NCBI RefSeq assembly: GCF_000015805.1
Contig: NC_009073.1
Coordinates: 1,350,001 to 1,382,000 of the forward strand
Length of the DNA stretch: 32,000 bases
Source: Pyrobaculum calidifontis JCM 11548
GTDB lineage: Archaea > Thermoproteota > Thermoprotei > Thermoproteales > Thermoproteaceae
Reading direction: 5' to 3'
A program made the position numbers and the translations under genes. A model generated the notes under the pieces. That model had not been told where the DNA came from and did no database searches. It saw only the letters and a program-made list of their open reading frames with translations. Of this stretch, positions 929-27,805 are shown in pieces (the first letter of the stretch is position 1; every line of letters starts with the position of its first letter).

Positions 929-2075
929 CTCTGAGCCGCGGGTAGACGTCGCCGCGGGATCTGTAGGTGAGGAACGTCCTGGCAAACTCAGGCACTCTCT
1001 GGTAGTAGTCTCTAACCTTGCCGAAGCCCAGCAGATCGAGGAACTTAGTCCACCCCACTCTCTCGATGAAGTCGGCGAGTCTCTCGCCGGGCTGGGCGTG
1101 CTGCCTCCACGTCTCTACTATGTGCTTTACCACGGCCACTATCTCCTCATACCTCGGCGGATTTGCGGGCAACCACGGTATCAACACCCGGCCCAGCCTG
1201 GGGCCAGTGCCAGTGTTAGACATCTTGCCGCCCACGAGTATTGACACGCCCACGTTTTCTGGGTCGTAGTCAAAGGCGTCGCAGTTCTCCTTACACCTGG
1301 CGCAGTTGATGCACTTTTCCCCAATTAGGACGAGCTTTACCTTGTCCCCCTCCCTCCTCAGAGAAAGGGCGCCGGTGGGGCAGACTTGGACTAGGAATAT
1401 CTGCGACTCCGGCAACTTGGCCAAGGCCTTAGGCGGCGGGAGACACATGGGGAGGACCTCCTCGCGTATCTTCGGCGGGGCGCCCCACTGGCCCACTATT
1501 GCTATATCTATAGCTGTGCCGCCAGCGCACATGGCCGGGCAACCGCTGACGAAGACCCTGAGCTTTGCGGGAAGCGGAATCTCGCCAGTGAAGTAGGGCT
1601 TCAGCGCATCGCCGAGGGCCTTGCTAATACTTGGGCTATCCACCACCGCGGTGGTGCACGTCAGATATGCAGTACAGCTGTTGATTCCCCACAAGGCGCC
1701 GCCCCAGCCTCCCACTGGGAAGCCCAGCTTCTCCACCTCCTCCTTGATCTTAAGCGCCTTCTCCAGAGAGTCTGTCAGAAACTCTATGTTGCCTGCCATG
1801 GTCACCCTCAGCGCGCCTATGCCCAACTTGTCCGCAATATCGGCAAATTTGTCCAACGTATCCGCCGAAAGCCTCGCGTTAGGCGGCAACGCGACTTTCA
1901 CAGTGAATATCCTCTCCCCAGTGGCAGAGACGTGCTCAATTATACCATTGCCATGGAACTTCCTATCCACCCACTTTCCATAGTTCCTGAGTATGGCCTC
2001 GGGCAGAAACTTCTCTAAGTCGACGGGGAAGACCTTCTGCAACCTCTCAGCCTTAGACGGGGCGGCGGCGGTCAT
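918..2075 (-). CDS. dsrB: Dissimilatory sulfite reductase-type protein, beta subunit (copy 1)
   Basis: Siroheme/[4Fe-4S] motifs CTAYLTC (Cx5C) and SGCPAMC (Cx3C). Ferredoxin insert CPTGA...CINCARCKENC. 4-nt overlap with dsrA1. Confidence 0.85.
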   Translation of the reverse strand: MTAAAPSKAERLQKVFPVDLEKFLPEAILRNYGKWVDRKFHGNGIIEHVSATGERIFTVKVALPPNARLSADTLDKFADIADKLGIGALRVTMAGNIEFLTDSLEKALKIKEEVEKLGFPVGGWGGALWGINSCTAYLTCTTAVVDSPSISKALGDALKPYFTGEIPLPAKLRVFVSGCPAMCAGGTAIDIAIVGQWGAPPKIREEVLPMCLPPPKALAKLPESQIFLVQVCPTGALSLRREGDKVKLVLIGEKCINCARCKENCDAFDYDPENVGVSILVGGKMSNTGTGPRLGRVLIPWLPANPPRYEEIVAVVKHIVETWRQHAQPGERLADFIERVGWTKFLDLLGFGKVRDYYQRVPEFARTFLTYRSRGDVYPRLRDGI

Positions 2076-3316
2076 ACCCCCACCTTGCCCTTGAGCTCTT
2101 CCACCAGCTTTAGGTACATGTCTCTCTCCTCCTTGGGCAACACTGCGTAGGGCACGTCGTCCGGCGTCTTGGCAATGGACTCGGGCATGCCCTCAAGCTT
2201 AATCCCAGCCTTCTCAATGAACTTGTCCAGCCCAGTCACCAAAATGTAGTCGCCGAGCCTGTACTTGGGCTGAGCCTCGGCCTCCCAGGGGGCAATGACC
2301 TTGAAGGTGAGGTCTATGGCCTCCTTCACCTGGTCCGGCCTTAGGTAGCCGATGAACCAGCCTAGCTTAGGCCCATACCTCCCCTTAACTCCGCCCCCAA
2401 TTACTACAGCGACTTTCCTATTCTTGCCTGGCTTTATGGCTGGGAAGGCTGTGCGGATGCAGTGCATAGACTTTTTGCACTTGCTCCCATCAATCACGAG
2501 CTCTTTCTTCTCGGCGTCCCACCTAATGGCGCCGCTGGGGCAGTTAGCGGCAAGCTTCACCGGGTCCACAACCCCCCTCTCCACAAGCTCCCTAAACTTA
2601 GCCTGATCCACCTCAGGAGCACCCTCCCACACGCCAATGAAGCCTATGTCTGCCCTGTTGGCGCGGGCGCAGTCCAGAGGACAGCCAGATATTTTGATCT
2701 TGAACTTGTAGGGGTAGTTGGGCGTCGCTATGTTGTCGTTGACGCGTTTGTCTTTGTGAAACTCCGCGTACCACTTCAAGGTGTCGAAGAGGGCGAATTC
2801 GCATAGGGCGGGCCCGACGCAGGCGTTGAGGGCTCTTATGGCGTCTCCGCTGCCGCCTACGTCTGTGCCTATGGACCTAAGGGCGTCCACCATCTCCTCT
2901 GCCTTGTCGGGCGTTAGGTTGAGGACAAAGGCGCCGGTCTGCCCCACCACCTCTATAAGTCCCACTCCCAGCTCTCTGGAGATCTTTGTAATCTTTCTTA
3001 TGAAGTCGGTCTTCCAGAACTTGCCTGGGGTGTGGAAGACTCTGAAGTGCACCTCTACGCCGCCGCCTGGAACCCAGTCTCTGGCCCACCGGGATAATAC
3101 CCCCGTGTTTACATAGGCCACCTTGACGGCGCCGGGGCCCCAGGGGGACTTCCTAGCCGCGAGGCCCACGCCGTAGACTCTGAGCGGGTACTGGGTCTTC
3201 CTCAGCTCCGCCACGTGGCTCGGCCAAGGCCCCTTCTCAAGCTCTTTCAATATCTCCTCGGCCCTCTGTAGAAGCTGGTCGGGCGGCGGTAGGTTGGGCG
3301 GTGCTGACATGAGCAT
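2072..3316 (-). CDS. dsrA: Dissimilatory sulfite reductase-type protein, alpha subunit (copy 1)
   Basis: Motifs CVGPALC (Cx5C) and SGCPLDC (Cx3C), plus ferredoxin-like insert CPSGAIRW...CKKSMHC. The second ATG at 3310 fits the TATA spacing better. Confidence 0.85.
   Translation of the reverse strand: MLMSAPPNLPPPDQLLQRAEEILKELEKGPWPSHVAELRKTQYPLRVYGVGLAARKSPWGPGAVKVAYVNTGVLSRWARDWVPGGGVEVHFRVFHTPGKFWKTDFIRKITKISRELGVGLIEVVGQTGAFVLNLTPDKAEEMVDALRSIGTDVGGSGDAIRALNACVGPALCEFALFDTLKWYAEFHKDKRVNDNIATPNYPYKFKIKISGCPLDCARANRADIGFIGVWEGAPEVDQAKFRELVERGVVDPVKLAANCPSGAIRWDAEKKELVIDGSKCKKSMHCIRTAFPAIKPGKNRKVAVVIGGGVKGRYGPKLGWFIGYLRPDQVKEAIDLTFKVIAPWEAEAQPKYRLGDYILVTGLDKFIEKAGIKLEGMPESIAKTPDDVPYAVLPKEERDMYLKLVEELKGKVGV
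2424..2629. repeat. Near-identical 206-nt tract shared with 9771..9976 (dsrA ferredoxin-like insert)
   Basis: By-eye alignment shows about 5 mismatches in 206 nt, all synonymous. Flanking dsrA sequence is much more diverged. Confidence 0.8.
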
Positions 3317-5697: not shown

Positions 5698-6126
5698 CTA
5701 CTTCTCGCTTACCTGTTTTAGGTTCTCCTCCATGCAACTGCCCATGGCCTTTAGCAGAGTCACCATGAGGCCCATGGCCTTCTGCACCTCTGGGTCACGC
5801 ATGGCGGAGAGGAGGCCGAAGAGCCCCACACGCGGCGCCCCGTCCTCGGCCACCTGTCTCAACGCCTTGCTGGCGCAGACCACGCCTCCCTGCATGGCGG
5901 CGCCCAAGGCGTTCAAGTCAGCCGAGTCCATTATGGACAACATGGAGATGAGCGGCGCCGCCACTTTGAACACCTGTATGTCCGCCATTAGGTGGGGCAA
6001 CTTCTCCAGCACGATCTTTACTGGGAGGAGGAGGGAGCTCAACTCCTCCACCTCCCTGCGCAGGGCCTGCACCTCCTGCAGAAGTCTCTCGTAGTCGGCC
6101 TTGGGTATTGTGACTACCTCGCTCAT
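5698..6126 (-). CDS. DUF1641-like protein (partner of SQR/NDH-II-type flavoproteins)
   Basis: C-terminal GLFGLLSAMRDPEVQKAMGLMVTLLKAMG resembles the DUF1641 signature. 4-nt overlap with the upstream flavoprotein gene. Confidence 0.6.
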   Translation of the reverse strand: MSEVVTIPKADYERLLQEVQALRREVEELSSLLLPVKIVLEKLPHLMADIQVFKVAAPLISMLSIMDSADLNALGAAMQGGVVCASKALRQVAEDGAPRVGLFGLLSAMRDPEVQKAMGLMVTLLKAMGSCMEENLKQVSEK

Positions 6127-7283
6127 GGCACTACCCCCAGAAGCCAGTTGAAGTACACTTTCTCAAACATCTCCTTGAACAATCGCGTCGCAGGTGCTGG
6201 CGGAAGGAACATGCAGTCGGGGTACGGCTTCTGCTTTTTCACAAACGGCGTGAAGTCGCAGGCAGCGGCCATTCCAAAGGCCCCCACGTCTAAGGCGCAT
6301 GTGCCAACAATTCTAAACGGGGGCTTCCCGAGGTATACGCCGAATAGGTCGGCGGCTATGTTGCTTATAACCCAGGGCATGTAGCTGTGTAGAATTGTCC
6401 CAGCCATCCCCACTGGGACGTTGGGAGCGGCAACGTCGCCTATTACGTATACGTCGTCGTATTTTGCGCTTCTAAAGTCGCCGTTGGCGGGGTTGCGAGG
6501 CGCCGCCCACCCATTTTTAGCCAAGTCACTGTTGAGCACGGGGTCCGGCGCCTTGTGCGGCGGGACAATAAAGGCCGCGTCGAACTTAAACTTCTCCCCG
6601 GTGGTGGTTTCCAGCTCGCTCTTGCCCAAGCTCTTGATTGCCGTGGACTGCCCCACGCCGACGTATTCAATCCCCAGCTGCTGTAGGAAGCCGGACATCC
6701 ACTTGGCCGCCATTGGGCCAAAGTTCTCAAAGGGCCTCTTGAGCGGGTGCACCACAGTTATCTTGACCTTGTCTCTCAGTCCCCGGGTTAGGTAGTAGAA
6801 GTGGGTAAGCATTGCCAGCTCGATGGGGGCTGGCGGACAGCGGTAGGGCAGAGAGTAAACGCCGATGACGATGTGCCCCTGCTTCACCTGGGCGAGGGCC
6901 TCGGCAACCTTGAGAGAAGGCTCTAGCTCCCACGTGTGGGGGAACCCAGTCTCTACGGTCTCTGCGCCGAGGGCCACCACCAACACGTCGTAGGTAAACT
7001 CCCCGGCCGTCGTCTTCACCTTCCTATTGGCCGCGTCTATGGCTGTCACCTTGGCCTTCACAAAATTTACCCCGTGGCGTTTTACGTGCTCAAGAGGGAC
7101 AGAGACTTCCTCCGGCCTCCTGTAGCCAAAAGCCACGTAGAGGTACGAAGGCCTAAAGTCCGTCCTATCCTTGGCGTCTATGAGCGTTATTTCCACATCC
7201 CCCGGCCCAAACCTCTCCCTAAGCTCCTTCACAGTCATTAAGCCGCCAGTTCCACCGCCCAGAACCAACACCTTTTTGGGCAT
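6123..7283 (-). CDS. sqr: Sulfide:quinone oxidoreductase-type FAD flavoprotein
   Basis: KVLVLGGGTGG Rossmann motif. Conserved-Cys contexts PYRCPPAPIE and GTCALDVG, plus VYVIGD. Start moved to the ATG at 7283 (TATA 24 nt upstream). Confidence 0.75.
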   Translation of the reverse strand: MPKKVLVLGGGTGGLMTVKELRERFGPGDVEITLIDAKDRTDFRPSYLYVAFGYRRPEEVSVPLEHVKRHGVNFVKAKVTAIDAANRKVKTTAGEFTYDVLVVALGAETVETGFPHTWELEPSLKVAEALAQVKQGHIVIGVYSLPYRCPPAPIELAMLTHFYYLTRGLRDKVKITVVHPLKRPFENFGPMAAKWMSGFLQQLGIEYVGVGQSTAIKSLGKSELETTTGEKFKFDAAFIVPPHKAPDPVLNSDLAKNGWAAPRNPANGDFRSAKYDDVYVIGDVAAPNVPVGMAGTILHSYMPWVISNIAADLFGVYLGKPPFRIVGTCALDVGAFGMAAACDFTPFVKKQKPYPDCMFLPPAPATRLFKEMFEKVYFNWLLGVVP

Positions 7284-7302
7284 AGACTTCACTTTCCAAA
7301 AA

Positions 7303-7369: not shown

Positions 7370-7792
7370 TTATATAAACAGAGTGACGGAGGCGTCCTTT
7401 GCCCTCTCGAGGAAGGTGGCGGCGCCCACCACCTCGTCCACGAAATCGGCGAGTTGCGCCTTGTCTTTTATGCCAAACATCTCCATGGTGGTAGAGCACG
7501 CGTAGACGCGTACGTTGCCCATGGACTTGGCTTGTCTTATAAGCTCGTGCCACGGCGGGAAGTTCATCTGCTTAACCGCCTGAGCCACCGCGGGGGCATA
7601 CTCTGCGAAGTCGGCCGAGATCTTCATCTGGGACAAGTTCTCCTTCCTAATGGCGTTTAGCCCCCAGAAGGTGAAAAAGAGCTCCACGTCCCAGCCCCCA
7701 GCGGCGGCCGCGCTCGAAAGAATGGCCACGGGGTACAGCTTGTCCACAGTGCCGCTCCACACGATTATTGCAAGCTTGTTTTTCTTTTCCAT
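7370..7792 (-). CDS. dsrE: DsrE3-type DsrE/DsrF-like sulfur carrier protein
   Basis: KLAIIVWSGTVDKLYPVAIL...VELFFTFWGLNAIRK...VYACSTTMEMFGI is typical of COG2210/DsrE3-like proteins with the active Cys. Confidence 0.75.
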   Translation of the reverse strand: MEKKNKLAIIVWSGTVDKLYPVAILSSAAAAGGWDVELFFTFWGLNAIRKENLSQMKISADFAEYAPAVAQAVKQMNFPPWHELIRQAKSMGNVRVYACSTTMEMFGIKDKAQLADFVDEVVGAATFLERAKDASVTLFI

Positions 7793-7830: not shown

Positions 7831-8322
7831 GCCCTCAGTGGAAGTACTTGTCAACGCCTTTTTAAGCTCTAGGAAATACGCGTCGCTGTCTAGCTCGAAC
7901 TGGTCTATCAAGTCCTCAATGTTTCCAGCAGTTAAGTTTTCCACAAAGGTCTTAAACCCCATCGCGGCGTAGACCACCTCCCCCTCCTGTTTTATTGGGA
8001 AGAGGAAGGGCGCCGGGTTGCCGAACTTCTCCACAGAGAACCTAGTCGTGGCGTCCTCCAGCTCCTCCACGTTGGAGACGCCCTCAAGGCGCCTCACGTC
8101 GTCCAGGTTCAAGAAGGCCAAGGCGTAGCCCTCCTCAGTCTTCAAGGCAGTGACAAGGTAGGGCCTGGGCCTACCCGGGAGGGAGAGGATGTAGGTGGCC
8201 TCGGCCCCCTCCTCCAGCTTCGCCAGCTCGTGGACCAAGTCCTCTACCTCCCCCAGCTCCTCAACTCCGTGGTTAAACCTAAGCCTTAGTAAAAAGTCCC
8301 CAATTATGTCGTAGATGCTCAC
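7822..8322 (-). CDS. Uncharacterised ~166-aa protein translationally coupled to dsrB copy 2 (orfX2)
   Basis: 4-nt overlap with the dsrB2 stop. Divergent homolog of 437..928. Confidence 0.6.
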   Translation of the reverse strand: MSIYDIIGDFLLRLRFNHGVEELGEVEDLVHELAKLEEGAEATYILSLPGRPRPYLVTALKTEEGYALAFLNLDDVRRLEGVSNVEELEDATTRFSVEKFGNPAPFLFPIKQEGEVVYAAMGFKTFVENLTAGNIEDLIDQFELDSDAYFLELKKALTSTSTEGVE

Positions 8323-9419
8323 GCCAAGAACTGCCTTATGCCGAACTCGCCCTCAAATTTCACGGGCTTATTCCACTTGGTGACTGGGATGTTCAACATC
8401 TCGTAGAACTTCTCCATGCCAATTCTGTGCACCCAGTCGCCCAGCCTCTCCCCCTCCCTGGCGTTCTGCCTCCACACGTCGATTATCTTCTTCACCACGG
8501 CCACGATTTCCCTATACGCGGGCGGGATGGCTGGCACCCAGGGTATTACCTGCACCGAGGGGAGCGGGCCTCTGCCTGTGTTGCTCGCCTTGCCGCCTAT
8601 GAGCACGGCCACTCCGGCCTTGCTCTGGTCGAAGTCAATCCAGTCACAGACGTCGCGGCAGCGGCCGCAGGCGATGCACTTGGACCTAATTATGTCGAGG
8701 CCCACAGAGCCGTCGGGTTTTCCATACACCTTTATGGCGTTGGTGGGGCACACCTCGGCCACCTCTGGCACGTGGCCGGCCTCCAGGGCCTTGGCGGACT
8801 TGGGGAGGCAGAGTTTTATCCTCTCGGGGTCGTAGGTGGGGGCGTCTCCGTAGTGGCCCACCAGGTTTATGTCCGCTGTGAACCCGCCGCAACTGCTGGG
8901 GCAACCAGAGACGTTTATCCTAAGCTTCGCCGGGAGAGTTATCTCGCCTGTGAAGTAGGGCTTAAGCGCGTCGTAGAGAACCTTGGTAATGCTGGGCGCG
9001 TCCACCACCGCTGTGGTGCACGTCAGAAAGGCAGTACAGCTGTTTATAGACCATATGGTGGGGCCCCAGCCTCCCACTGGGAAGCCCAGCTTCTCCACGG
9101 CCTCCTTGATCTTAAGCGCGTTCTCTAGAGAGTCTGCCATGAACTCCACGTTTCCGTTTCTGGTAATCCTCAGCGCCCCGATGCCGTAGGTGTCAGCGAT
9201 TTCGACAAACTTCTTGAGAGTGTCGACGCTGACCCGGAAGTTGGGCGGCGTGCCCACCTTCACTGTGAATATCCTCTCCCCAGTGGCAGAGACGTGCTCA
9301 ATTATGCCGTAGCCGTGGAACTTCCTATCCACCCACTTGCCCAAATTCCGCTTCAGCGCCTCCGGCAGCCAGTCGGTGTAGGGTACTGGGAGCCTCTTCT
9401 TAAACCTCTCAGCGCTCAT
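8319..9419 (-). CDS. dsrB: Dissimilatory sulfite reductase-type protein, beta subunit (copy 2)
   Basis: CTAFLTC and SGCPSSC motifs. Ferredoxin insert CPTNA...CIACGRCRDVC. 4-nt overlap with dsrA2. Confidence 0.85.
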   Translation of the reverse strand: MSAERFKKRLPVPYTDWLPEALKRNLGKWVDRKFHGYGIIEHVSATGERIFTVKVGTPPNFRVSVDTLKKFVEIADTYGIGALRITRNGNVEFMADSLENALKIKEAVEKLGFPVGGWGPTIWSINSCTAFLTCTTAVVDAPSITKVLYDALKPYFTGEITLPAKLRINVSGCPSSCGGFTADINLVGHYGDAPTYDPERIKLCLPKSAKALEAGHVPEVAEVCPTNAIKVYGKPDGSVGLDIIRSKCIACGRCRDVCDWIDFDQSKAGVAVLIGGKASNTGRGPLPSVQVIPWVPAIPPAYREIVAVVKKIIDVWRQNAREGERLGDWVHRIGMEKFYEMLNIPVTKWNKPVKFEGEFGIRQFLA

Positions 9420-10654
9420 AGCTTGTACTCAGCCACTATCTTGTTGACCCAGTCTAGCCACATCTTCCTCTCCTCGTCGTCGAGCACCGCGCCCGCCCTA
9501 AGCGACGGGTGTAAGGTGGGCTTGCCCTGCGGCTTCACCTTCACCACCTCCTCGAGGTAGCGCTTGAAGCCTACCTTCATGATGAAGTCCCCAATCCTGT
9601 CCTTGTGCTTAACCATGCCCTTCTCCATGCCCTCCATCCAAGCCTCGACAGTCTTCACCACCCAGTCCGCGGCCTCCTTGTAGTCGTTGACTATGGCCAA
9701 GGGCTTGGACATCTTTCCGCCAAATCTGCCCTTGACGTGGCCGCCCACGAGCACCGCAATCTTCCTGTTTTTGCCTGGCTTTATGGCTGGGAAGGCTGTG
9801 CGGATGCAGTGCATAGACTTTTTGCACTTGCTCCCGTCTATCACGAGCTCTTTCTTCTCGGCGTCCCACCTAATGGCGCCGCTGGGACAATTGGCGGCAA
9901 GCTTCACCGGGTCCACAACCCCCCTCTCCACAAGCTCCCTAAACTTAGCCTGATCCACCTCAGGAGCACCCTCCCAGATGCCTATAAAGCCGAAGTCGGC
10001 GCGGTGCACTGCCCTAGTGCAGTCGAATGGGCATCCCGAGAACTTGGCCTTGAATTTGAAGGGGAACAGCTGGTTGCTCATCCACTCGTATATCTTGGGG
10101 TGGGTTAAGAAGTAGTCCCGCGCCGCGAGGGTGTCGTATAGGGCGAACTCGCAGAGGGCGGGCCCGACGCACGTGGCCAGCTCTCTGATGGTGTCGCCGG
10201 TGGCCCCCACGTCTGTTCCAATGGCCCTCAAGGCGTCGATGGCCTCATCCGCCTTCTCCGGCTGGATGGAGATAATCATCATCCCCTGTTGGCCGGCCAG
10301 CTCCACGAGGCCTAGGCCGTACTTTTCAATGAACTCGATCAGCTGGCGGAGCTTCTGCGTGGTGTATATCTGGCCCGAGGGCTGCCATACTCTGAAGTGG
10401 AGCTCCGCGTATTTTCCATCCCTGGTCCTCCTGGCGATGAAGCCAGTGTAGACGAACCGTATCTTGGCGGAGCCAGCGGCCCACATGGTCTTCCTAGCCG
10501 CCAGCCCCGCCCCGTAGGCGTCTATGGGGTAGTTGGTCTTCTTGAGCTCCGCCACGTGGCTCGGCCAAGGCCCCTTCTCGTAGTACTCAAGGATGCGGCG
10601 CCCCTCTTCTGCATATGCGTCAACAGTTAGGGGCTTTTTCTCAACAGTTTCCAT
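9416..10654 (-). CDS. dsrA: Dissimilatory sulfite reductase-type protein, alpha subunit (copy 2)
   Basis: CVGPALC and SGCPFDC motifs. The ferredoxin-like insert is identical to copy 1 over ~70 aa. TATA is 22 nt upstream of the ATG. Confidence 0.85.
   Translation of the reverse strand: METVEKKPLTVDAYAEEGRRILEYYEKGPWPSHVAELKKTNYPIDAYGAGLAARKTMWAAGSAKIRFVYTGFIARRTRDGKYAELHFRVWQPSGQIYTTQKLRQLIEFIEKYGLGLVELAGQQGMMIISIQPEKADEAIDALRAIGTDVGATGDTIRELATCVGPALCEFALYDTLAARDYFLTHPKIYEWMSNQLFPFKFKAKFSGCPFDCTRAVHRADFGFIGIWEGAPEVDQAKFRELVERGVVDPVKLAANCPSGAIRWDAEKKELVIDGSKCKKSMHCIRTAFPAIKPGKNRKIAVLVGGHVKGRFGGKMSKPLAIVNDYKEAADWVVKTVEAWMEGMEKGMVKHKDRIGDFIMKVGFKRYLEEVVKVKPQGKPTLHPSLRAGAVLDDEERKMWLDWVNKIVAEYKL
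9771..9976. repeat. Partner of the 2424..2629 near-identical tract
   Basis: Same as above. The antisense ORFs 2352..2606 and 9687..9953 give identical peptide strings across it. Confidence 0.8.
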
Positions 10655-20215: not shown

Positions 20216-20251
20216 AGAATTGCGTTTATAAACCCCAGCCAGCGTGTCAAC

Positions 20252-21436
20252 GTGGCCCAGAGGCTGTACCTCCTAACCATATTCGCCCTATCTGCGGCCC
20301 TCTTGTACATGCAGTTTGCGCCTTCTGGCGGAGAAGTGGGCGACGACTTGTACATAGTGGTGGGGGGAAATCCCCCCTCGGTGGCAGTTTTCAACGGCAG
20401 CAAGTTCCTAGGGGGGTCTTACCTCTACGACGCAGATCCCTACTTCCCCATGTACGACAGCTTTCTATACGGGGACTTCCTCCTGGTGTTCCAAGGCGAG
20501 GCGGGCTCCATAATCTACATCTACAACATCTCCGACTTTAAGAAAGTGTATGGCACAGTGCACGCCCCAAGCAATGTGAGCCACCTCCTCTACGGGGAGC
20601 TTGGGCTGGCCCCCCTGGTGGGCTCCACGTTGTACATAGCGGTGTCCAACTTCGCCGAGAAGCGAGGCTACGTATGCGCGCTGGATTTAGACGCGCTTCT
20701 GCTCAAGGAGTGCATAAGCGTTGGGATGTACCCCCACGCCCCCATAAAGGTGGGCGACGTGGTGGTGGCTCCGACAATTAGGGAGCCGAGGCTGGTCTTT
20801 TACAGCCCCTCCAATGGCTCTCTAAGGGTTATATCGCCGCGGTACGACTGGCCCATATTCGTCAATACCCACGACGTGTTGAGATACACCCAGCTCTCCT
20901 TCCACATGATTACCACAGACGGTCGGTACATATACGGCGAGGGGCACTTGGTGGAGCCTGGCACAAGGTTCGCGGTGGGGGTGCACTCCCACGCCCTTGT
21001 GGTGGCCATGGACTTGAGCGGGAGAGTTGTGTCGGTGGCTCCCACCAACGCCCCGCCGCCCGGCCTCCCCGGCCTCGCCGTGTGCAACGGCAAGCTCTAC
21101 GCCACCTCGCCAGTGGAGGGGCTAGTGTACGTATTTGAAGTCCCCTCGCTGAAGCTGGTAAAGACCATTAAGACGGGGGGCGTTCCGTGGGGCGCCTTTG
21201 CCAACCCCAAGTGTACGGCGGTCTATGTCACAGACATCGTAGGGGGGAGAGTGCTCGTGATTGACGTTAGGAGAGACGAAGTGGCAAAGGTAGTGAAGAC
21301 CCCCATGCTCTGGCCACACACCGTCATCTTTGTGGACAAGGAGGTAGTGGAGAAGATGGACATACAGCCCGAGGTCAAGTTCAAGCCCTTGGAGATACCG
21401 CCCTATCTCTACTGCGGCGATGCTCCCCCCAGTTGA
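20252..21436 (+). CDS. Signal-anchored YVTN-type beta-propeller repeat protein
   Basis: GTG start 24 nt after TATA tttataaa (20225-20232). Hydrophobic N-terminus LYLLTIFALSAALLY. Repeats such as LYATSPVEGLVYVFEVPSLKLVKTIKTGGVPWGAF and AVYVTDIVGGRVLVIDVRRDEV. Confidence 0.55.
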   Translation: MAQRLYLLTIFALSAALLYMQFAPSGGEVGDDLYIVVGGNPPSVAVFNGSKFLGGSYLYDADPYFPMYDSFLYGDFLLVFQGEAGSIIYIYNISDFKKVYGTVHAPSNVSHLLYGELGLAPLVGSTLYIAVSNFAEKRGYVCALDLDALLLKECISVGMYPHAPIKVGDVVVAPTIREPRLVFYSPSNGSLRVISPRYDWPIFVNTHDVLRYTQLSFHMITTDGRYIYGEGHLVEPGTRFAVGVHSHALVVAMDLSGRVVSVAPTNAPPPGLPGLAVCNGKLYATSPVEGLVYVFEVPSLKLVKTIKTGGVPWGAFANPKCTAVYVTDIVGGRVLVIDVRRDEVAKVVKTPMLWPHTVIFVDKEVVEKMDIQPEVKFKPLEIPPYLYCGDAPPS

Positions 21437-22178
21437 GCCCGCCTTGTTGATTACGCTTGGCGCGCTGGGCGGCGCGGCGGCCTTTGCCCACTTGGCCTCG
21501 CCCAAGTGGGCGGCTTTTGCGGGAGGGGTTGTTTTACACATGGCGCTAGTCCAAGCGTTTCTAGCGGCGTCTTTCGTCAAATCCCTCGCCGTAGTGGCCC
21601 CAGTGAACTTAATCCCCTTGTTCATCCTCGGCGTATTTACCACATCTGCGGCATTCATGCTGGGGGTAATCGCAACAATAAAGTGGGGGGAGAGGCACCT
21701 CTACCTCCCTCTGGCCCTCTCAGCGGCTCTTTTGGCAAACAAGGCCCCCGCCGTAGAGGCGCTTCAAACATACGGCGTAGACGTCACCTATCTGGGCTAT
21801 GTGGCATACGGCATGCTCCTAGCCGCCTCCGCCTCTGCCGTCTCCCACAACCTAGCACTTAGGCTGCCCTCCGCCTACCCCCTCGCCTTTGCGGTCGCCG
21901 CGCTTTTAGGCAACTTAGCCTACGCCGCAACCCCCAACCTCCTATACTCCGAGGGCCTCCTCTACTACATGTTCACCACGGCCAACCTCTACTCTTTCAA
22001 CTCGGCTATGATGGTGTACCTAGGCTTTAGAAACAACGTGGCGGCCTTGGGCAAAATGGGCGGCTTTAAGTCCACCAAGTTTTGGCTCTACCTCCTCCTT
22101 GGAAACCTCGCTTACGGCCTTGTGGAAGTGTTATTCATGATTAAGAACCCACAGGTTCACGACCTTTTACACAGATGA
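21420..22178 (+). CDS. Integral membrane protein (~8 predicted TM helices), unknown family
   Basis: Hydrophobic throughout. Its stop overlaps the start of the Tat-flavoprotein gene (ATGA). The true start is uncertain. Confidence 0.5.
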   Translation: MLPPVEPALLITLGALGGAAAFAHLASPKWAAFAGGVVLHMALVQAFLAASFVKSLAVVAPVNLIPLFILGVFTTSAAFMLGVIATIKWGERHLYLPLALSAALLANKAPAVEALQTYGVDVTYLGYVAYGMLLAASASAVSHNLALRLPSAYPLAFAVAALLGNLAYAATPNLLYSEGLLYYMFTTANLYSFNSAMMVYLGFRNNVAALGKMGGFKSTKFWLYLLLGNLAYGLVEVLFMIKNPQVHDLLHR

Positions 22179-23374
22179 AGAGGCGCGACCTCCTAAAGCT
22201 CGCCCCCTTGCCCCTCTTAGCCGCGTTGTTGCCCCTAATCTGGCCCAGGGGGCGCCCGGGGGCAGACGTCAAGGCTAAGGTCTTGGTGGTTGGGAAAGGC
22301 ATTGCCGGCAGCATGGTGAAAATGATCTTAGACAGCCACGGTGTGGGGGCCACGGTGCTTGAGTGTTCAGACGCGGCTCTGCCCGGGCCTGGGAAAGTGG
22401 ACGTGGCCCTGGGGCTCGCCGACGCGGGAGACCTCCTAGTCCACTTAGGCGTCGGCGGCGGCGTGGTGAAGACCTGCGCCACGGGCATAGACCCCGACAA
22501 CCGCCTCGTCTACACAGACACCAGGGTGTACTCCTACGACATCCTCTTCTTGACGCCGGGCGTGGTCTTCGACTACGGCGCAGTGGAGGTCAAGGGCAGA
22601 GTGGACAACTTTACCCCCTACGAGTTAGGCTCGGCGCTGGCCAAGAGGGAGCTGAGCGCCGGGCGCTACGTGATTGTACACCCCAATTTGCCCTACCGGT
22701 GCACCTCGGCGCCCTACGAGTTCGCCCTCCTCCTAGACTGGAGACTTAGGGAGGAGGGGAAGCCCCACAGCGTCACCATAATCTCGCAGGTGGGGAAGAT
22801 CCCGGCCGTCTTTGAAAAATATATCTCACAGATGGGGGAGCTCGTGTGGAAAATACTGGAGGAGAGGGGTGTCGAGTACATAAACGCCGAGGTAGAGCTC
22901 GTGGATGGGGAAAACAAGGTGGTGCACCTCTCCACTGGGGAGAAGGTTCCCTTCGACTACCTCACCTTAGTGCCCCCCAATAAGGCTCCTAGGTTTATCT
23001 CAGCTGTGTCAAACGCCGAGGGGTTCTACGTGGAGGTAGACGAAAGGATGAGGCACCCCAAGTACAGAGATATCTACGTGGCGGGAGACGCGGTTTGGCA
23101 CGTGGTTAAGACAGGATGGGCCGCGGCCACCGAGGCCGCCATAGCCGCCGCGTGGGCGCTCGAGGACTTAGGCATAAGCGTGGAGAAGCCCAAGGAGATA
23201 TACAGCGAAGATGCTATAAGGATAACCCCAGACCTGGGGATTAGGGGGGCGAAGAGGTGGTACCCAATATACGGCGATGTTTACTGGCGGCAGATAGAGG
23301 GCCCAAGCCCAGAGGTCGTGGAGGCGAAGAAAAAAACAATAGAGTTCTTCCGACAGTTGCTAAAATACTACTAG
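22175..23374 (+). CDS. Tat-signal SQR/flavocytochrome-c-sulfide-dehydrogenase (FccB)-like flavoprotein
   Basis: MKRRDLLKLAPLPLLAALL twin-arginine signal. VLVVGKGIAGS FAD motif. PYRCTSAPYEF conserved-Cys context and YVAGDA motif. Confidence 0.7.
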   Translation: MKRRDLLKLAPLPLLAALLPLIWPRGRPGADVKAKVLVVGKGIAGSMVKMILDSHGVGATVLECSDAALPGPGKVDVALGLADAGDLLVHLGVGGGVVKTCATGIDPDNRLVYTDTRVYSYDILFLTPGVVFDYGAVEVKGRVDNFTPYELGSALAKRELSAGRYVIVHPNLPYRCTSAPYEFALLLDWRLREEGKPHSVTIISQVGKIPAVFEKYISQMGELVWKILEERGVEYINAEVELVDGENKVVHLSTGEKVPFDYLTLVPPNKAPRFISAVSNAEGFYVEVDERMRHPKYRDIYVAGDAVWHVVKTGWAAATEAAIAAAWALEDLGISVEKPKEIYSEDAIRITPDLGIRGAKRWYPIYGDVYWRQIEGPSPEVVEAKKKTIEFFRQLLKYY

Positions 23375-23731
23375 TCTGTCCACTTCCTCCAGGAAGGTGT
23401 ACATTGAGGTGACCTTGTCCACAAGCGCGGGGTCATACTCCTCCTCGGAGATTCCAAAGATCTTGCTGGCCGTTTCGCAGACGTATACCTTGACGCTCCC
23501 TATGGACTTCGCTGTAGAGAGCAGGGACTTCCAATCCACGCCCAACTCCACGATTCTCTTGTGCTCTGGCGAGGATAGGGGAGGGGCGTACTCTTTTTTA
23601 AACGCCTTGACAGCCTCCCCGGTGACGAATATGCTAACCTCCTCGCCCCTGGCCACCAGCGTAGACACAAGCGTGGCAAATTCGTACAGTCTCACAAAGT
23701 CGCCGCTCCCCACTATGATTCCAAAGGCCAT
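23360..23731 (-). CDS. dsrE: DsrE3-type DsrE/DsrF-like sulfur carrier protein
   Basis: ORF-track 23360..23755 trimmed to the ATG at 23731 (MAFGIIVGSGD). VKVYVCETASKIFGI Cys motif. TAATG junction with the upstream tusA. Confidence 0.75.
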   Translation of the reverse strand: MAFGIIVGSGDFVRLYEFATLVSTLVARGEEVSIFVTGEAVKAFKKEYAPPLSSPEHKRIVELGVDWKSLLSTAKSIGSVKVYVCETASKIFGISEEEYDPALVDKVTSMYTFLEEVDRLVVF

Positions 23732-23979
23732 TACCTCTCTATCACAATGCGCCAAACGCCCTTCTCAGGCATGTCCATGGCGACGACTTTGCTACCGTTT
23801 CTCTCAGCCACAGACTTTATATTGTCGCAGGAGGGAGGGTTGTCTGTGTACACCACCAGGACCTCACCCTTCTTAATGCTCTTAAGCGCCTGTGCCGTAT
23901 ACATCTGGGGGTAGGGGCACACAAAGCCCTTTAAATCTAGCTCGTACTTCCCATCCCCAATCTTCTTCAAGCTGGGCAT
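23731..23979 (-). CDS. tusA: TusA-like sulfurtransferase (two-Cys subtype)
   Basis: ATG at 23979 (MPSLKK...). LDLKGFVCPYPQ plus TDNPPSCDNI. Paralog of 17470..17715. GGAATAA-TATA promoter at 24001-24018. Confidence 0.8.
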   Translation of the reverse strand: MPSLKKIGDGKYELDLKGFVCPYPQMYTAQALKSIKKGEVLVVYTDNPPSCDNIKSVAERNGSKVVAMDMPEKGVWRIVIER

Positions 23980-24000
23980 GCCGACCCCCATTTTGCACAA

Positions 24001-24186: not shown

Positions 24187-25209
24187 ATGGCGGAGTTAGG
24201 GCTGGGAGTCCCCACGCCGAGGAAGTACTGGATCGCTTTGGGTCTTGTGGTAGGCGTAGTGGTGGGGCTGGTAATTGGCTACTATTTAAACGCGGCCACG
24301 CTTCAGTACGCCTATAGGTTGCTTGAATCTGCTCAACAGCCTCCTCCCGACGTATACGTCGTGGCCCTCTCTCCTAAGGGTGCGGCGTTTTTCCTAACCG
24401 CCATGGGCACGCCCATAACCACTGCGCAGTGGAGCGGCGGGGCGGCGAGGGTGGCCGGGGCCTATAGGGACATGTATATAGCCTACGACGGGGACCGGGG
24501 AAAAATCTTCCAGATAACCCAGGGCCTTGAGATTAAGAACGTGGTGTATATTGATGGCCTTGTGGGAGTGTACCTAGACGAAAAGGGCGGCTACATATAT
24601 GCCTTGTCTAGAGATAAACTGTATAAGATATCGGCGGATACTCTTGACATAGTTAAATCGGTGGAAGTGCCCAACGGCGTGTATATCGCCGGCGTAAACG
24701 AGCCTTCGACAGTGGTGTACGTGCTGACGGAGAGGTCCCTCGTCAAATTCGACGGAGATTTAAACAAGTTGGGAGAGGTGGCCGTCTCGGGCAAGTCGTT
24801 GTTTGTTGGAGTGCTCTACTTCTTCGTCGGCGGCGACGGCTTTGTAAAATCCTTTGACAAATCTAATAGGCAGATAGCCGAGGTTAAATTGGATGGCGGC
24901 GTGTCTCAACTCTTGGCCTGCCGCGGGATACTGCTTGCTTCCACAGACGGCGGCGTATATGCGGTGTCTATACCAGATCTAAGAGTTATAAAGAGACTAG
25001 ACGCGAGGGGCATTTTGTATGCTGACCCCACTTGCAGTGTAGTATACGCAGTGGAGGACTCCAAGGCCACCGTGATACTGATACCGTCTTTAAACACGCA
25101 TGTGGTCAATCTGCCGGAGCCCCTCGACGGCTTGATATTTAGAACGGGCGCCGGCGCCGCGCTGGGCGGAGGAGCCGCGAGAAAAGTGGCCCTGGCCTGC
25201 GGAGGGTAG
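24187..25209 (+). CDS. Membrane-anchored beta-propeller-like protein
   Basis: N-terminal TM segment YWIALGLVVGVVVGLVIGYYL, then repeated strand blocks (GGYIYALSRDKLYKISADTLDIVKSVEV, GGVYAVSIPDLRVIKRL, VVYAVEDSKATVILIPSL). Confidence 0.5.
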   Translation: MAELGLGVPTPRKYWIALGLVVGVVVGLVIGYYLNAATLQYAYRLLESAQQPPPDVYVVALSPKGAAFFLTAMGTPITTAQWSGGAARVAGAYRDMYIAYDGDRGKIFQITQGLEIKNVVYIDGLVGVYLDEKGGYIYALSRDKLYKISADTLDIVKSVEVPNGVYIAGVNEPSTVVYVLTERSLVKFDGDLNKLGEVAVSGKSLFVGVLYFFVGGDGFVKSFDKSNRQIAEVKLDGGVSQLLACRGILLASTDGGVYAVSIPDLRVIKRLDARGILYADPTCSVVYAVEDSKATVILIPSLNTHVVNLPEPLDGLIFRTGAGAALGGGAARKVALACGG

Positions 25210-25211
25210 CC

Positions 25212-26558
25212 ATGAGGGCGGCAACTATACTCATAGCCGTCTTGGTCGTGGCCCTGGTGATACTTGCGGCGTTATACACCTCGGCCACACAAGAGTTGGC
25301 CTCTGCCCGGGGAGAGGTTGAAAAGGCTAAGCAGGAGGCGGCGCAGGCAAGTAAACAGGCTGAGGAGCTTAGGGGGCAGTTGACCCAGCTTCAGAACAGG
25401 CTGAACGAGCTACAGTCGAGGCTAGCCGAGGCTCAGAAGACCATAGAAGCGCTGAGGGGACAAGCGCAACCCATTGCTGGCTACATGTACGCCCTTGTGG
25501 TTGACACTGTAGGCGGTAGCGACGAGTTGTTTATATATGTGATCGACCCCCGCACCAACGACCTCGTCGTCAAAATACCTCTAAGAGATAGACTGCCAGC
25601 AGACGTATATACGCTTATGAGAAACGCCTCACTGAGGCTTGTCTCCCCCTCCACGCTAGAGGTCTGGATGCCGCGGTATTATACGCAGCCGGGGCAGTAC
25701 CTCTATATCCTATACGAGGGGCCGTGGGGGTCCTATGTGGCGGCCCTAGATCCCAAGGACTTCTCCTTGGTGAAGAACGTGAAGATCTACGACAAGTACA
25801 CTAGACAGTACGGCGGCATATCGCCTGATGGGAAGCTCCTAGTGGTTGCGCAACGCCAGGCGCAACAGATAGTCTACCTAGACGCCAAGACTTTGGATGT
25901 GATAAGAGCGGTGAAGACTGACGCCAATCCGTGCGACGTGGCGCCTTCGCCCGACGGAAACTACTTCGCCATTCCTGTGAGGGCCGACGGGGCAGAGGGC
26001 AAGCCTGAATACGTTTTGATCATCGACCGGGAGGGGAGGGAGGTGGCGCGCGCCTACTTTAGAAGGCCTGGCGAGGCTGGGCCTCCCACGGAGCCCTCCA
26101 TGACCTACTGGACGCTCGACGGGAAATATGTATTACTGCAGGGGGAGGCTAGGCCCTATGAGGCAGTGGTGGAGGTGGACGTTGCGGCTAAGTCGGCGAG
26201 AATTGTAAAGGAGGTGAGCTACCCCTCTGGCACCGTGGCGTTTATGGCTGAGGAGCATCCCATGGCCAAGGGCGAGGTCTGGGTGGTGGTGAGAGGTGCG
26301 GGGGTCTATGTCAGATCGCCGCCGCCAGAGTACAGGGAAATCACGCGCGTTGCCACGGCTATAGACGTTAAGGGCATTGTACAAGGCGCATTTAGCCCAG
26401 ATGGGCGCTATTTCTACGTCGTGGGATCTGGCGGCATAGATGTAATTGACGTGGCGGCTAAGTCCGTGGTAAAGACTATAAAGGCTAAGTCGGCTGTGTG
26501 GATCATTGCAATACCCAGCGGCGAGTGGCTATACTATAGCGGAGTGTTGAGAGGGTGA
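25212..26558 (+). CDS. Membrane-anchored coiled-coil plus YVTN-type beta-propeller protein
   Basis: TM segment ILIAVLVVALVILAALY. About 60 aa of coiled coil (EKAKQEAAQASKQAEELRGQLTQLQNRLNELQSRLAEAQ). YVTN-like repeats ISPDGKLLVVAQ...IVYLDAKTLDVIRAVKT, PSPDGNYFAIPV, FSPDGRYFYVVGSGGIDVIDVAAKSVVKTI. Confidence 0.6.
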   Translation: MRAATILIAVLVVALVILAALYTSATQELASARGEVEKAKQEAAQASKQAEELRGQLTQLQNRLNELQSRLAEAQKTIEALRGQAQPIAGYMYALVVDTVGGSDELFIYVIDPRTNDLVVKIPLRDRLPADVYTLMRNASLRLVSPSTLEVWMPRYYTQPGQYLYILYEGPWGSYVAALDPKDFSLVKNVKIYDKYTRQYGGISPDGKLLVVAQRQAQQIVYLDAKTLDVIRAVKTDANPCDVAPSPDGNYFAIPVRADGAEGKPEYVLIIDREGREVARAYFRRPGEAGPPTEPSMTYWTLDGKYVLLQGEARPYEAVVEVDVAAKSARIVKEVSYPSGTVAFMAEEHPMAKGEVWVVVRGAGVYVRSPPPEYREITRVATAIDVKGIVQGAFSPDGRYFYVVGSGGIDVIDVAAKSVVKTIKAKSAVWIIAIPSGEWLYYSGVLRG

Positions 26559-27805
26559 CCATGTCGAGGGTAAAGGACTTCTTGGTAAAGCCCTGGCGGC
26601 CTGAGGTGGCTGGGCTGGTCATCGGCATTGTAGCCTCTCTTCAGATACTTGTGATTAGATCGCCGTGGTATATCACAGGCCCCGAGACTCAGTTCGGCGG
26701 CTGGCTCCTCAAGACTTTGACTCTAGGCGCCGTGAAGGTGGATCTGTGGGACTACTTCAACCCAAGCTCCCCCATGTTTGTGGCAAAGGCCCTGGGGCCG
26801 CTGGAGAACCCCGGCTTTCAAATAGTGCTCGGCTTCATGCTGGGGGCCGCGATAGCCAAGGCGCTCCAGGGCGCGTGGCGTCTCCGGTGGCCCGCCAACT
26901 GGGGTGTGGTGATTACGTCGATTATCGGGGGCTTGCTCTTGGGCTTCGGCGCCAGGCTCGCCCTGGGTTGCAACGTGGGGAACTTCTTCGCCACCGTGCA
27001 GAGCCTTGTGTTCTCCGGCTTCGTCTTCTTCCTCGGCATGGCCATGGGGACATACGTAGCCACGTTCCTCATAGAGACGTGGCTCATGGATAGAATAGCC
27101 AAGACGAGACCCATTAGGATATCCATCGGAGGCAACGTAGACAATCGCAAGGTCTTGGCCACGGCTGTGGCTATAACGGCGGCTCTATCTCTATACTGGT
27201 GGCAAATAGGCGTGATGGCAGGCCTTCTCTATCTGCTGTTCGGGGTGGCGTACGGCTTCGCGGGGGCGAAGGCGGATATATGCTTTACCTCCATGTTGAG
27301 AGACGGCTTCTGGAGCCGGCTGGCCCCCTACGGCGCAAACGCCAGGGCCGTGGCCATAGCCCTCTCCATAACCATAACGGCGAACTTAGTGCTCAAATAC
27401 GGCGTCGGCTACAGCTACAGCGAGTTTCTATTCCCAGTGGGCATTCACACGTTGCTTGGCGGCTTCCTATTCGGCATAGGCATGGTCCTAGTGGCTGGGT
27501 GTAGCTTCAGCTCCGCGTATAGAAGCGGCGAGGGGAGCATACCGCACTTAATCGCATGGATATTCATGATAATCGGGATGACGCTCTTGGCATATGTATG
27601 GCCCTTCTTCTACACTACTGCCGTGGCCCTTAGCCCAGTGTTAACACTGCCCGAGATGCTCCACGGCAATGTGGCCGCCGCGGCGGCCCTCGGCTACCTC
27701 TTCTGCCTATTCCTAGCCCTCTACCCAAGTATCCGCGACGGCACTATACAACTAAGCCAATTAAACATAAAACTGCCAAAGCTACTAATAACTAGGTCTA
27801 AATAA
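26555..27805 (+). CDS. YeeE/YedE-family membrane transporter (thiosulfate/sulfur-compound uptake family)
   Basis: Polytopic membrane protein with the family's Cys-containing helix motifs ARLALGCNVGNFF and VLVAGCSFSSAYRSGEG. 4-nt overlap with the preceding gene. Confidence 0.75.
   Translation: MTMSRVKDFLVKPWRPEVAGLVIGIVASLQILVIRSPWYITGPETQFGGWLLKTLTLGAVKVDLWDYFNPSSPMFVAKALGPLENPGFQIVLGFMLGAAIAKALQGAWRLRWPANWGVVITSIIGGLLLGFGARLALGCNVGNFFATVQSLVFSGFVFFLGMAMGTYVATFLIETWLMDRIAKTRPIRISIGGNVDNRKVLATAVAITAALSLYWWQIGVMAGLLYLLFGVAYGFAGAKADICFTSMLRDGFWSRLAPYGANARAVAIALSITITANLVLKYGVGYSYSEFLFPVGIHTLLGGFLFGIGMVLVAGCSFSSAYRSGEGSIPHLIAWIFMIIGMTLLAYVWPFFYTTAVALSPVLTLPEMLHGNVAAAAALGYLFCLFLALYPSIRDGTIQLSQLNIKLPKLLITRSK

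Follow-up and report, generated by a model that had tools for sequence, protein, structure and literature searches.

A predicted Tat-exported flavoprotein of the FccB/SQR superfamily is encoded with a degenerate ZIP relative in an eight-gene module with TusA, DsrE and YeeE in Pyrobaculum and Thermoproteus

A 32,000-nucleotide stretch of the genome of Pyrobaculum calidifontis JCM 11548 (contig NC_009073.1, positions 1,350,001 to 1,382,000; the genome is a single contig of 2,009,313 bp), referred to below as the window, carries three overlapping open reading frames (ORFs) on its plus strand: a propeller gene (20252-21436), a gene for a protein with about eight transmembrane (TM) helices (21420-22178; 8-TM protein), and a flavoprotein gene (22175-23374). 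A preliminary description of this DNA saw in them a candidate cytochrome-free, extracytoplasmic sulfide dehydrogenase, in which a flavoprotein resembling sulfide:quinone oxidoreductase (SQR) and FccB, the flavoprotein of flavocytochrome c sulfide dehydrogenase (FCSD), is accompanied by a membrane protein of unknown family instead of a cytochrome. The question raised by the locus is what kind of enzyme this flavoprotein is, and with which partner it works. To our knowledge, the extracellular oxidation and mobilisation of reduced sulfur in archaea are poorly understood beyond the Sulfolobales; we know of no Sox system in Pyrobaculum, and of no mechanism by which sulfur is fed to YeeE, TusA, DsrE and Dsr. 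Our tentative answer, whose chances we place somewhat below even, is an outward-facing sulfide/sulfane oxidoreductase, in which the exported flavoprotein would be paired with an 8-TM protein derived from ZIP (Zrt/Irt-like) metal transporters and would receive a second thiol in trans.

All three ORFs and both overlaps were found as described. The 8-TM gene overlaps the propeller gene by 17 nt, its ATG lying within the codons of the conserved CGDAPPS tail of the propeller, and its stop codon overlaps the flavoprotein start by 4 nt (ATGA). Orthologues of the three genes, at 34-53% identity, are present in four other genomes, and the ORFs are therefore genuine genes and not chance ORFs. Among 120 Thermoproteia species genomes, flavoprotein orthologues (E < 1e-75) were detected in five, namely those of P. 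calidifontis, P. aerophilum IM2, P. ferrireducens, P. oguniense TE7 and Thermoproteus uzoniensis 768-20; the weaker matches in the same set (1e-20 to 1e-30) are ordinary SQR paralogues. A collection of 5.8 billion proteins yielded only four other clusters of flavoprotein homologues, all at ~40% identity. The 8-TM, flavoprotein and 394-aa propeller families co-occur in exactly the same 5 of 29 genomes of the host family, and the 4-bp overlap between the 8-TM and flavoprotein genes is kept in all five. The invariance of this translational coupling suggests that the two proteins are stoichiometric partners, and their genes are the constant core of a larger module.

The module comprises eight genes that are present in every locus, encoding TusA, DsrE, YeeE, the 394-aa propeller protein, a 340-aa and a 448-aa protein, the 8-TM protein and the flavoprotein. 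An operon with successive 4-bp overlaps is formed in P. ferrireducens and T. uzoniensis by the genes for the 340-aa, 448-aa and 8-TM proteins and the flavoprotein, in this order; it is divergent from the TusA, DsrE, YeeE and 394-aa genes, and the gene order of P. aerophilum is the same. In P. oguniense, the 340-aa gene is found with the YeeE and 394-aa genes, while TusA and DsrE precede the series 448-aa, 8-TM, flavoprotein. In P. calidifontis, the 394-aa gene and the 340/448 pair have exchanged positions; the gene immediately before the 8-TM gene is the 448-aa gene in the other four genomes. Thus, of the trio singled out in the preliminary description, the coupling of the 8-TM and flavoprotein genes holds everywhere, whereas the propeller-first order is specific to P. 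calidifontis. The pirin and 268-aa genes located upstream were rejected as module members, having no counterpart in the other loci. In the literature we found no paper on TUZN_1099 to TUZN_1105, and none describing the pair or the module in Pyrobaculum.

The origin of the 8-TM protein (252 aa) was revealed by profile comparison. Pfam, NCBIfam and PDB sequence searches gave no family match, and the Pfam ZIP model (PF02535) did not match either; a word-based homologue search returned only the protein itself, and a contig search with the 8-TM alignment found one locus, in P. oguniense. An exhaustive profile search of 1.84 billion representatives identified four orthologues and a tail of remote matches, in which the motifs HNxGEG and HNxTEG are present and which score weakly against Pfam ZIP. 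When the 8-TM family was aligned with crenarchaeal ZIPs using hhalign, a probability of 98.9% (E = 2.8e-17) was obtained over 200 columns, and a search with the joint alignment led to proteins named ZIP or ZupT by NCBI, JGI and UniRef in Aeropyrum, Pyrobaculum and Thermoproteus. The family profile matches the canonical ZIP paralogues of P. calidifontis and other genomes at 1e-14 to 1e-19, and in a BLASTP comparison the 8-TM protein was found to be 28% identical to the ZIP of its own genome over 212 aa. Some of the P. aerophilum orthologues bear the NCBI label 'ZIP family metal transporter'. The protein previously left without a family is thus a ZIP relative. The NrfD/PsrC-, DoxD- and DsbB-like folds that had been considered for it showed no link in the Pfam, NCBIfam and PDB sequence searches, and these identities, like a NarI-like one, were rejected for want of sequence support and in view of the clear ZIP ancestry. 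The preliminary description had held that an unrelated transporter lacking synteny with the flavoprotein would speak against it; the 8-TM protein proved to be transporter-derived, but it is syntenic with the flavoprotein everywhere.

The metal site of the family has decayed. Neither of the two HNxxEG metal motifs is intact in any of the six 8-TM orthologues, whereas the canonical ZIP paralogue of P. calidifontis has intact HNVAEG and HNFTEG, and a canonical ZIP is also kept in each host genome examined. The central part of the P. calidifontis 8-TM protein aligns ambiguously; an H-N dipeptide (153-154) is kept and the Glu is missing. Like the ZIP proteins (Zrt/Irt-like, ZupT, BbZIP 5tsa), the family has ~8 TM helices and the motifs TS, N, GG, FW, G and E, the common residues T75, N206, G214-G215, F221-W222, G228 and E236 being aligned to ZIP TM3, TM7 and TM8. 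Unlike them, it lacks the intact HNxxEG pair (TM4 and TM5 by analogy with BbZIP), possesses features of its own (His40-Met41, Lys54, Pro61-Val62 and a C-terminal P..H) and is always coupled to a flavoprotein gene. Invariant within the family are His40, Lys54, Thr75-Ser76, Asn206, Glu236 and the C-terminal P..H. Clusters of Lys and Arg are found in the loops that would be cytoplasmic under the ZIP topology, and both the N- and C-terminus would then lie on the outer side. These comparisons identify the 8-TM protein as a degenerate branch of the crenarchaeal ZIP family, with neither metal motif intact. A haem-b anchor role is unlikely, His40 being the sole invariant His of the hydrophobic core and His247 lying in the C-terminal tail.

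The ZIP ancestry raises the possibility of a metal system, in which the 8-TM protein would still import cations in the manner of a ZIP, and the exported flavoprotein would act outside the cell as a metal reductase or oxidase that prepares the substrate of the importer. The homology is solid and is reflected in the NCBI name of the P. aerophilum orthologues; in addition, the 394-aa propeller has six invariant His residues, and at the P. aerophilum-type locus an SCO1/SenC gene directly follows the 392-aa propeller gene. We nevertheless regard such a system as very unlikely: the six orthologues have no intact HNxxEG while a bona fide paralogue is encoded in the same genome, the invariant motif of the flavoprotein is the sulfide-enzyme motif LPYRCTSAPYE, and YeeE, TusA and DsrE are present at every locus, whereas SCO1 is not conserved in the other loci.

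The flavoprotein (399 aa, with a GD motif at residues 304-305) belongs to the FccB/SQR superfamily. Pfam detects the Pyr_redox_2 and FCSD_central domains, and the best NCBIfam match, NF049943 (SQR_III_seleno), reaches 80.6 bits compared to a cut-off of 525 bits; the protein lies far below every curated threshold. In the PDB, the family profile matches FccB best (1fcd, 1e-22; then 3vrd and 5n1t), followed by human SQOR (1e-18) and the SQRs of Acidianus and Aquifex. The Cys context noted in the preliminary description, PYRCTSAPYEF, is present, and LPYRCTSAPYE is invariant across the orthologues. Its Cys, C176, equivalent to FccB Cys161 and SQR Cys160, is the sole invariant Cys, and seven of the eight family members have no other. 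Accordingly, among these eight, only the Cys161 equivalent was found of the FccB Cys161-Cys337 redox disulfide, and only the Cys160 equivalent of the catalytic set of A. ferrooxidans SQR (Cys160 and Cys356, with or without Cys128). Since one redox Cys of two is kept, the flavoprotein alone cannot run the canonical FCSD/SQR disulfide mechanism.

The best profile matches, to the FccB subunits 1fcd, 3vrd and 5n1t, invite the explanation that the protein is a classical enzyme of FCSD/SoxF type, oxidising sulfide and delivering the electrons to a c-type cytochrome encoded elsewhere, the 8-TM protein being an anchor or an unrelated transporter. The likeness to FccB extends to the fold, to a Tat (twin-arginine translocation) signal placed directly before the FAD Rossmann strand, to the P-(Y/F)-R-C-x-x-x-P-Y-E motif and to the lack of an NAD(P)H site (no second, NAD-type GxGxxG motif was read from the flavoprotein sequence). 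Paracoccus SoxF, moreover, works without a fused or adjacent FccA. Several findings stand against this explanation. The Cys that forms 8-alpha-S-cysteinyl-FAD (Cys42) is missing, an invariant Gly being found at this position, where the FCSD-like 'FVSCPLSN' aligns to 'VGPAKED', and the Cys337 partner is missing as well. The FCSD C-terminal domain PF09242, which is present in the FCSD-like matches P0006-P0009, was not found in the flavoprotein, and the profile-profile alignment of the family with FCSD-like proteins (probability 99.4%) stops before this domain, at residue 332, just before the cysteine of the FCSD 'NTCYS' motif. Finally, no FccA cytochrome gene is adjacent, and the invariant coupling to the obligatory 8-TM partner suggests a stoichiometric partnership.

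In place of PF09242, the flavoprotein carries an unrelated C-terminal tail of 67 residues. This region is unique, rich in Trp, Tyr, Lys and Arg, and has many invariant positions (YSED..R, RGAK.W.P.YG, WR); the hydrophobic moment of the last 70 residues is 0.5-0.7, compared to a 95th percentile of 0.42 in the core. These properties fit an interfacial or partner-binding surface. An amphipathic, aromatic-rich C-terminus that could bind the membrane is a likeness to SQR types I-VI (3hyv, 3t2z, human SQOR 6oi5), with which the flavoprotein also has the superfamily, the fold and the Cys160 equivalent in common. It differs from them in having one of two or three catalytic Cys, in its predicted export by Tat and in its low NCBIfam score; the SQRs are, furthermore, monotopic and self-sufficient, whereas the flavoprotein is encoded with an integral membrane partner.

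Maximum-likelihood analysis placed the flavoprotein family in a clade of its own (100/100 support) on a stem of 1.64 substitutions per site, apart from the FCSD-like proteins as well as from the Thermoproteia SQR paralogues. The flavoprotein, which fits neither FCSD nor SQR by the cysteines and domains that define them, represents a new deep subfamily of the FccB/SQR superfamily; the SQR/FccB-like character proposed earlier stands at the level of the superfamily and the Cys motif, with the qualification that a single catalytic Cys is present and the clade is separate. With 1.03 substitutions per site, the P. calidifontis copy is the deepest and longest branch of the family. Its position is outside the T. 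uzoniensis copy, even though its host is a Pyrobaculum, and it alone in the family has extra Cys residues (C64 and C101) and a rearranged operon. These features point to faster evolution or to transfer of the gene.

Export of the flavoprotein was predicted from its N-terminus, MKRRDLLKLAPLPLLAALL (Tat signal at residues 1 to ~30), which is followed by GKGIAG (residues 40-45). M1, R3, R4 and L7 are invariant in five of five aligned family members, with the motif M-(K/R)-R-R-(D/E)-(F/L)-L; against the Tat consensus (S/T)RRxFLK, the family has KRRD(L/F)LK and a 15-residue hydrophobic region. The NCBIfam model TAT_signal_seq (TIGR01409) matches three of the five. The consensus N-terminus of the FCSD-like proteins, MKRRDLLKLA, is identical, and the profile alignment of these proteins with the flavoprotein family starts at residue 1. 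There is no in-frame ATG between the flavoprotein start and the Rossmann strand, the sole upstream ATG being the one that overlaps the 8-TM stop. A start further downstream, without the RR signal, was rejected, as the internal TTG and GTG codons lie in KVLVVG and would truncate the first Rossmann strand. The P. calidifontis genome encodes TatC (146 bits) and TatA (66 bits) near ~508 kb. Because the RR pair is invariant, no alternative start keeps the Rossmann strand intact, and TatA and TatC are encoded, export by Tat is likely. The earlier reading of a twin-arginine signal directly before the FAD GxGxxG motif was thereby confirmed, with RR kept in all orthologues and the start not displaced downstream. 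In most orthologues the Rossmann strand begins only ~8 residues after the hydrophobic region, with no obvious small-x-small site for cleavage, and the signal may be left uncleaved and serve as a membrane anchor.

The question of the electron acceptor was approached through the distribution of cytochromes c. No ORF of at least 80 aa with a CxxCH motif was found in the whole window or in the four orthologous loci of 17-20 kb, in which as little as ~1.8 kb of sequence lies beyond the module genes on one side. This counts against a classical enzyme of FCSD/SoxF type. On the other hand, cytochrome c maturation genes are present in all five module genomes, compared to 7 of the 24 other genomes of the family; the hypergeometric chance of this split is ~0.007, which makes the association look stronger than it is, because the genomes are related. 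The designation 'cytochrome-free' thus holds for all five loci, none of which has a CxxCH gene, and not for the five host genomes, all of which have cytochrome c maturation genes. CcmC/CcmF-like genes (PF01578) are located ~5 kb from the T. uzoniensis module (G117:C1:940380-941507; L030:9907-13014) and ~10 kb downstream of the P. calidifontis module (G000:C1:1383032-1387317), and 42-600 kb from the module in the other three host genomes.

According to Kletzin et al., c-type cytochromes occur, among sequenced Thermoproteales, only in T. uzoniensis and 4-5 Pyrobaculum species (PMC4429474). The module is present in each of the respiratorily versatile species named there (T. uzoniensis, Pyrobaculum sp. 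1860, P. oguniense and P. aerophilum). P. oguniense shares ~96% genome identity with the strict anaerobe P. arsenaticum (PMC3558965), and in the genome taken to be P. arsenaticum (G093) both the module and the maturation genes are missing. Such a distribution speaks for an oxidative role linked to respiration at high potential, with either quinone or cytochrome c as the possible acceptor. The link to the cytochrome-c Thermoproteales, together with the short distance to the Ccm genes in T. uzoniensis and P. calidifontis, also adds weight to the FCSD/SoxF-type explanation; with its missing domain, cysteines and cytochrome gene, we consider it unlikely overall, with a chance large enough to be taken seriously.

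The opposite direction of electron flow has been considered as well. In a reductive enzyme, quinol electrons would pass through the flavoprotein to persulfides, polysulfides or disulfides on Cys-tailed propellers, and the carriers would be recycled or sulfide released from extracellular sulfur. Single-Cys persulfide/disulfide reductases of this fold class, e.g., the CoA-persulfide reductase 8a56 and the CoA-disulfide reductases (CoADR), are among the weaker matches, and P. oguniense is able to use sulfur, thiosulfate and disulfides as acceptors (PMC3558965). Moreover, dsr genes are present in the window and sat-type genes on a P. aerophilum-like contig (L002). However, the conserved Cys of the flavoprotein occupies the SQR/FccB position and not the N-terminal position of CoADR. 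The module was also not found in four other complete genomes of the genus and family, of 1.8-2.1 Mb (G093, G095, G096 and G116), which we infer to be those of the strict sulfur respirers/anaerobes P. arsenaticum, P. islandicum, P. neutrophilum and T. tenax, and neither P. calidifontis nor P. aerophilum, both of which carry the module, is known to be a sulfur respirer. A reductive enzyme is, in our assessment, rather unlikely.

The remaining products of the module include possible donors of the missing thiol. The 394-aa propeller protein (20252-21436, plus strand, GTG start) has an N-terminal hydrophobic signal/anchor and one clear YVTN unit (residues 276-346) that matches every blade of the Methanosarcina S-layer propeller 1l0q (5e-15); with TIGR02276 it scores 25.2 bits, compared to a cut-off of 27.85 bits. 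Five Cys and six His are invariant in its family, as is the C-terminal tail CGD(L/A/M)PP. The 340-aa protein (24187-25209, plus strand) is TM-anchored, with a Gly/Ala-rich linker ending in an invariant ALACGG-COOH, and the 448-aa protein (25212-26558, plus strand) consists of a TM anchor, a coiled-coil stalk and a YVTN propeller with one invariant Cys (ANPCDVAPSPDG). Three anchored proteins, two of them with Cys tails, are thus predicted in the module to be of propeller type, the 340-aa protein only tentatively. The ALACGG tail recalls the GGCGG arm of SoxY, and we regard the 340-aa protein as a candidate for a sulfur-carrying arm and for the source of the second thiol. Neither of the two Cys-tailed proteins (340 aa and 394 aa) has a Pfam or NCBIfam match, SoxY included, at E <= 0.01.

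The genes for sulfur transfer lie on both sides of the 340/448 pair. A DsrE-family sulfurtransferase (PF02635; 23360-23755, minus strand; 54% identical to the syntenic P. ferrireducens gene product) and the sulfur carrier TusA (PF01206, 1.2e-19; 23731-24000, minus strand), also syntenic, follow the flavoprotein gene, and a YeeE/YedE-family sulfur transporter (PF04143, 6.6e-42), whose orthologues are 66% identical in all loci, is encoded at 26555-27805 on the plus strand.

In the mechanism that we put forward for the outward-facing sulfide/sulfane oxidoreductase, the flavoprotein would be folded with FAD in the cytoplasm, exported by Tat and held at the outward side of the cell membrane, perhaps by its uncleaved signal. 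There it would dock on the 8-TM protein, the membrane dock and possibly the electron outlet to the quinone pool. Because the flavoprotein keeps only the FccB-Cys161/SQR-Cys160 equivalent, the second thiol is proposed to come in trans, from the C-terminal Cys tails (ALACGG-COOH and CGDxPP) of the co-encoded anchored proteins, to join C176. Sulfide or sulfane sulfur would be oxidised onto the carrier Cys as a persulfide, two electrons would pass through FAD to the respiratory chain, and the carrier-bound sulfur would be handed through YeeE to cytoplasmic TusA and DsrE. A variant in which sulfide is oxidised directly onto the Cys arm of an anchored propeller carrier, with electrons reaching quinone via the remodelled ZIP metal pocket, seems to us quite unlikely; it would be an enzyme of new architecture, with the 8-TM protein as the first ZIP-derived redox subunit, and a non-haem, non-Sox route for loading a YeeE importer.

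Parts of the proposed mechanism have counterparts in known systems. Human SQOR also hands its sulfane sulfur to an external acceptor. In Hyphomicrobium denitrificans, a route from the YeeE-like SoxT1A to TusA/DsrE3 has been described (PMC11582611). The logic of SoxF/SoxYZ combined with the SoxT1A route is similar, comprising an FccB-like flavoprotein that is exported and has no cytochrome of its own, a carrier with a C-terminal Cys-Gly-Gly arm, a YeeE importer and TusA/DsrE. Unlike the Sox system, the module is archaeal and has no SoxXA, SoxB, SoxCD or SoxZ, its flavoprotein has a single Cys, and the putative partner is ZIP-derived.

Several points weigh against the proposed oxidoreductase. 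No conserved set of TM His residues for haem is present in the 8-TM family, and a quinone site in a ZIP-derived protein, although possible, would be a new invention. The AlphaFold2 model of the 8-TM protein, built from a 3-sequence alignment, is unusable (predicted local distance difference test, pLDDT, 49), with no Foldseek match at E < 0.001. The model of the flavoprotein (5-sequence alignment) is poor (pLDDT 53), and its active-site geometry is not readable; Foldseek finds with it the same FCSD/SQR enzymes at a TM-score of ~0.5, at which FCSD and SQR are not separable and the C-terminal domain is not resolved. The trans-thiol idea is drawn from the analogy with SoxY and from the missing Cys. 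The co-occurrence with cytochrome c is equally compatible with a cytochrome acceptor encoded elsewhere, and a reductive role would agree with the ability of P. oguniense, P. ferrireducens and T. uzoniensis to reduce sulfur compounds as well. It should be noted that the flavoprotein family comprises five species and some metagenome fragments, and that the genomes are closely related, which makes the conservation statistics weak.

Upstream of the propeller gene in P. calidifontis, a TATA-like box, TTTATAAA, was read from the sequence at 20226-20233 (plus strand), and its distance of 18 nt to the GTG is compatible with a leaderless archaeal transcript from a predicted promoter, in agreement with the preliminary description. 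On the P. aerophilum-type metagenome contig (L002), the SCO1/SenC copper-chaperone gene (L002:1191-1817) lies directly 3' of the 392-aa propeller gene, slightly overlapping it, in the context of the TusA-DsrE-YeeE-propeller operon; this neighbour is not conserved in the other loci. A copper centre in the His-bearing propeller of the 394-aa family is conceivable. At the P. ferrireducens locus, two short adjacent ORFs (L001:395-863), ~1 kb past the 392-aa propeller gene, match Oxidored_molyb (sulfite-oxidase/SoxC family) and may be a split or mis-called gene. A Pyrobaculum genome without the rest of the module contains a 42-residue fragment (G103:C6:31902-32027) that matches residues 323-364 of the 394-aa propeller at 60% identity and may be left over from a lost module.

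Further sulfur-related genes were identified around the module. On the P. aerophilum-type contig, the region 3' of the module (L002:9656-16326) encodes a lipoamide-dehydrogenase-like flavoprotein, an SQR/DUF1641 pair, an HdrD-like CCG/Fe-S protein with a NarI-like cytochrome b, and ATP sulfurylase; this gene set places the module within a larger sulfur island. The second SQR with a DUF1641 partner reported in the window is genuine (SQR, 6123-7292; DUF1641, 5698-6126), and this SQR is a distant paralogue of the 399-aa flavoprotein. Two separate pairs of NIR_SIR-domain, dissimilatory sulfite-reductase-like genes, on the minus strand within 918-3316 and 8319-10654, lie on either side of a block that holds the cytoplasmic SQR, its DUF1641 partner and a DsrE2-like gene (7370-7792).

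In public annotation, the proteins of the pair are named 'flavoprotein reductase, conjectural', 'FAD-dependent oxidoreductase', 'hypothetical protein' and 'ZIP family metal transporter'; the last three names hide the link between the two proteins and would mislead inferences on metal transport. If the proposed function is correct, a ZIP scaffold would for the first time be seen to have been recruited to a redox complex. The system would provide a testable candidate for the step that feeds YeeE, TusA, DsrE and Dsr, as well as a new example of a catalytic Cys supplied in trans.

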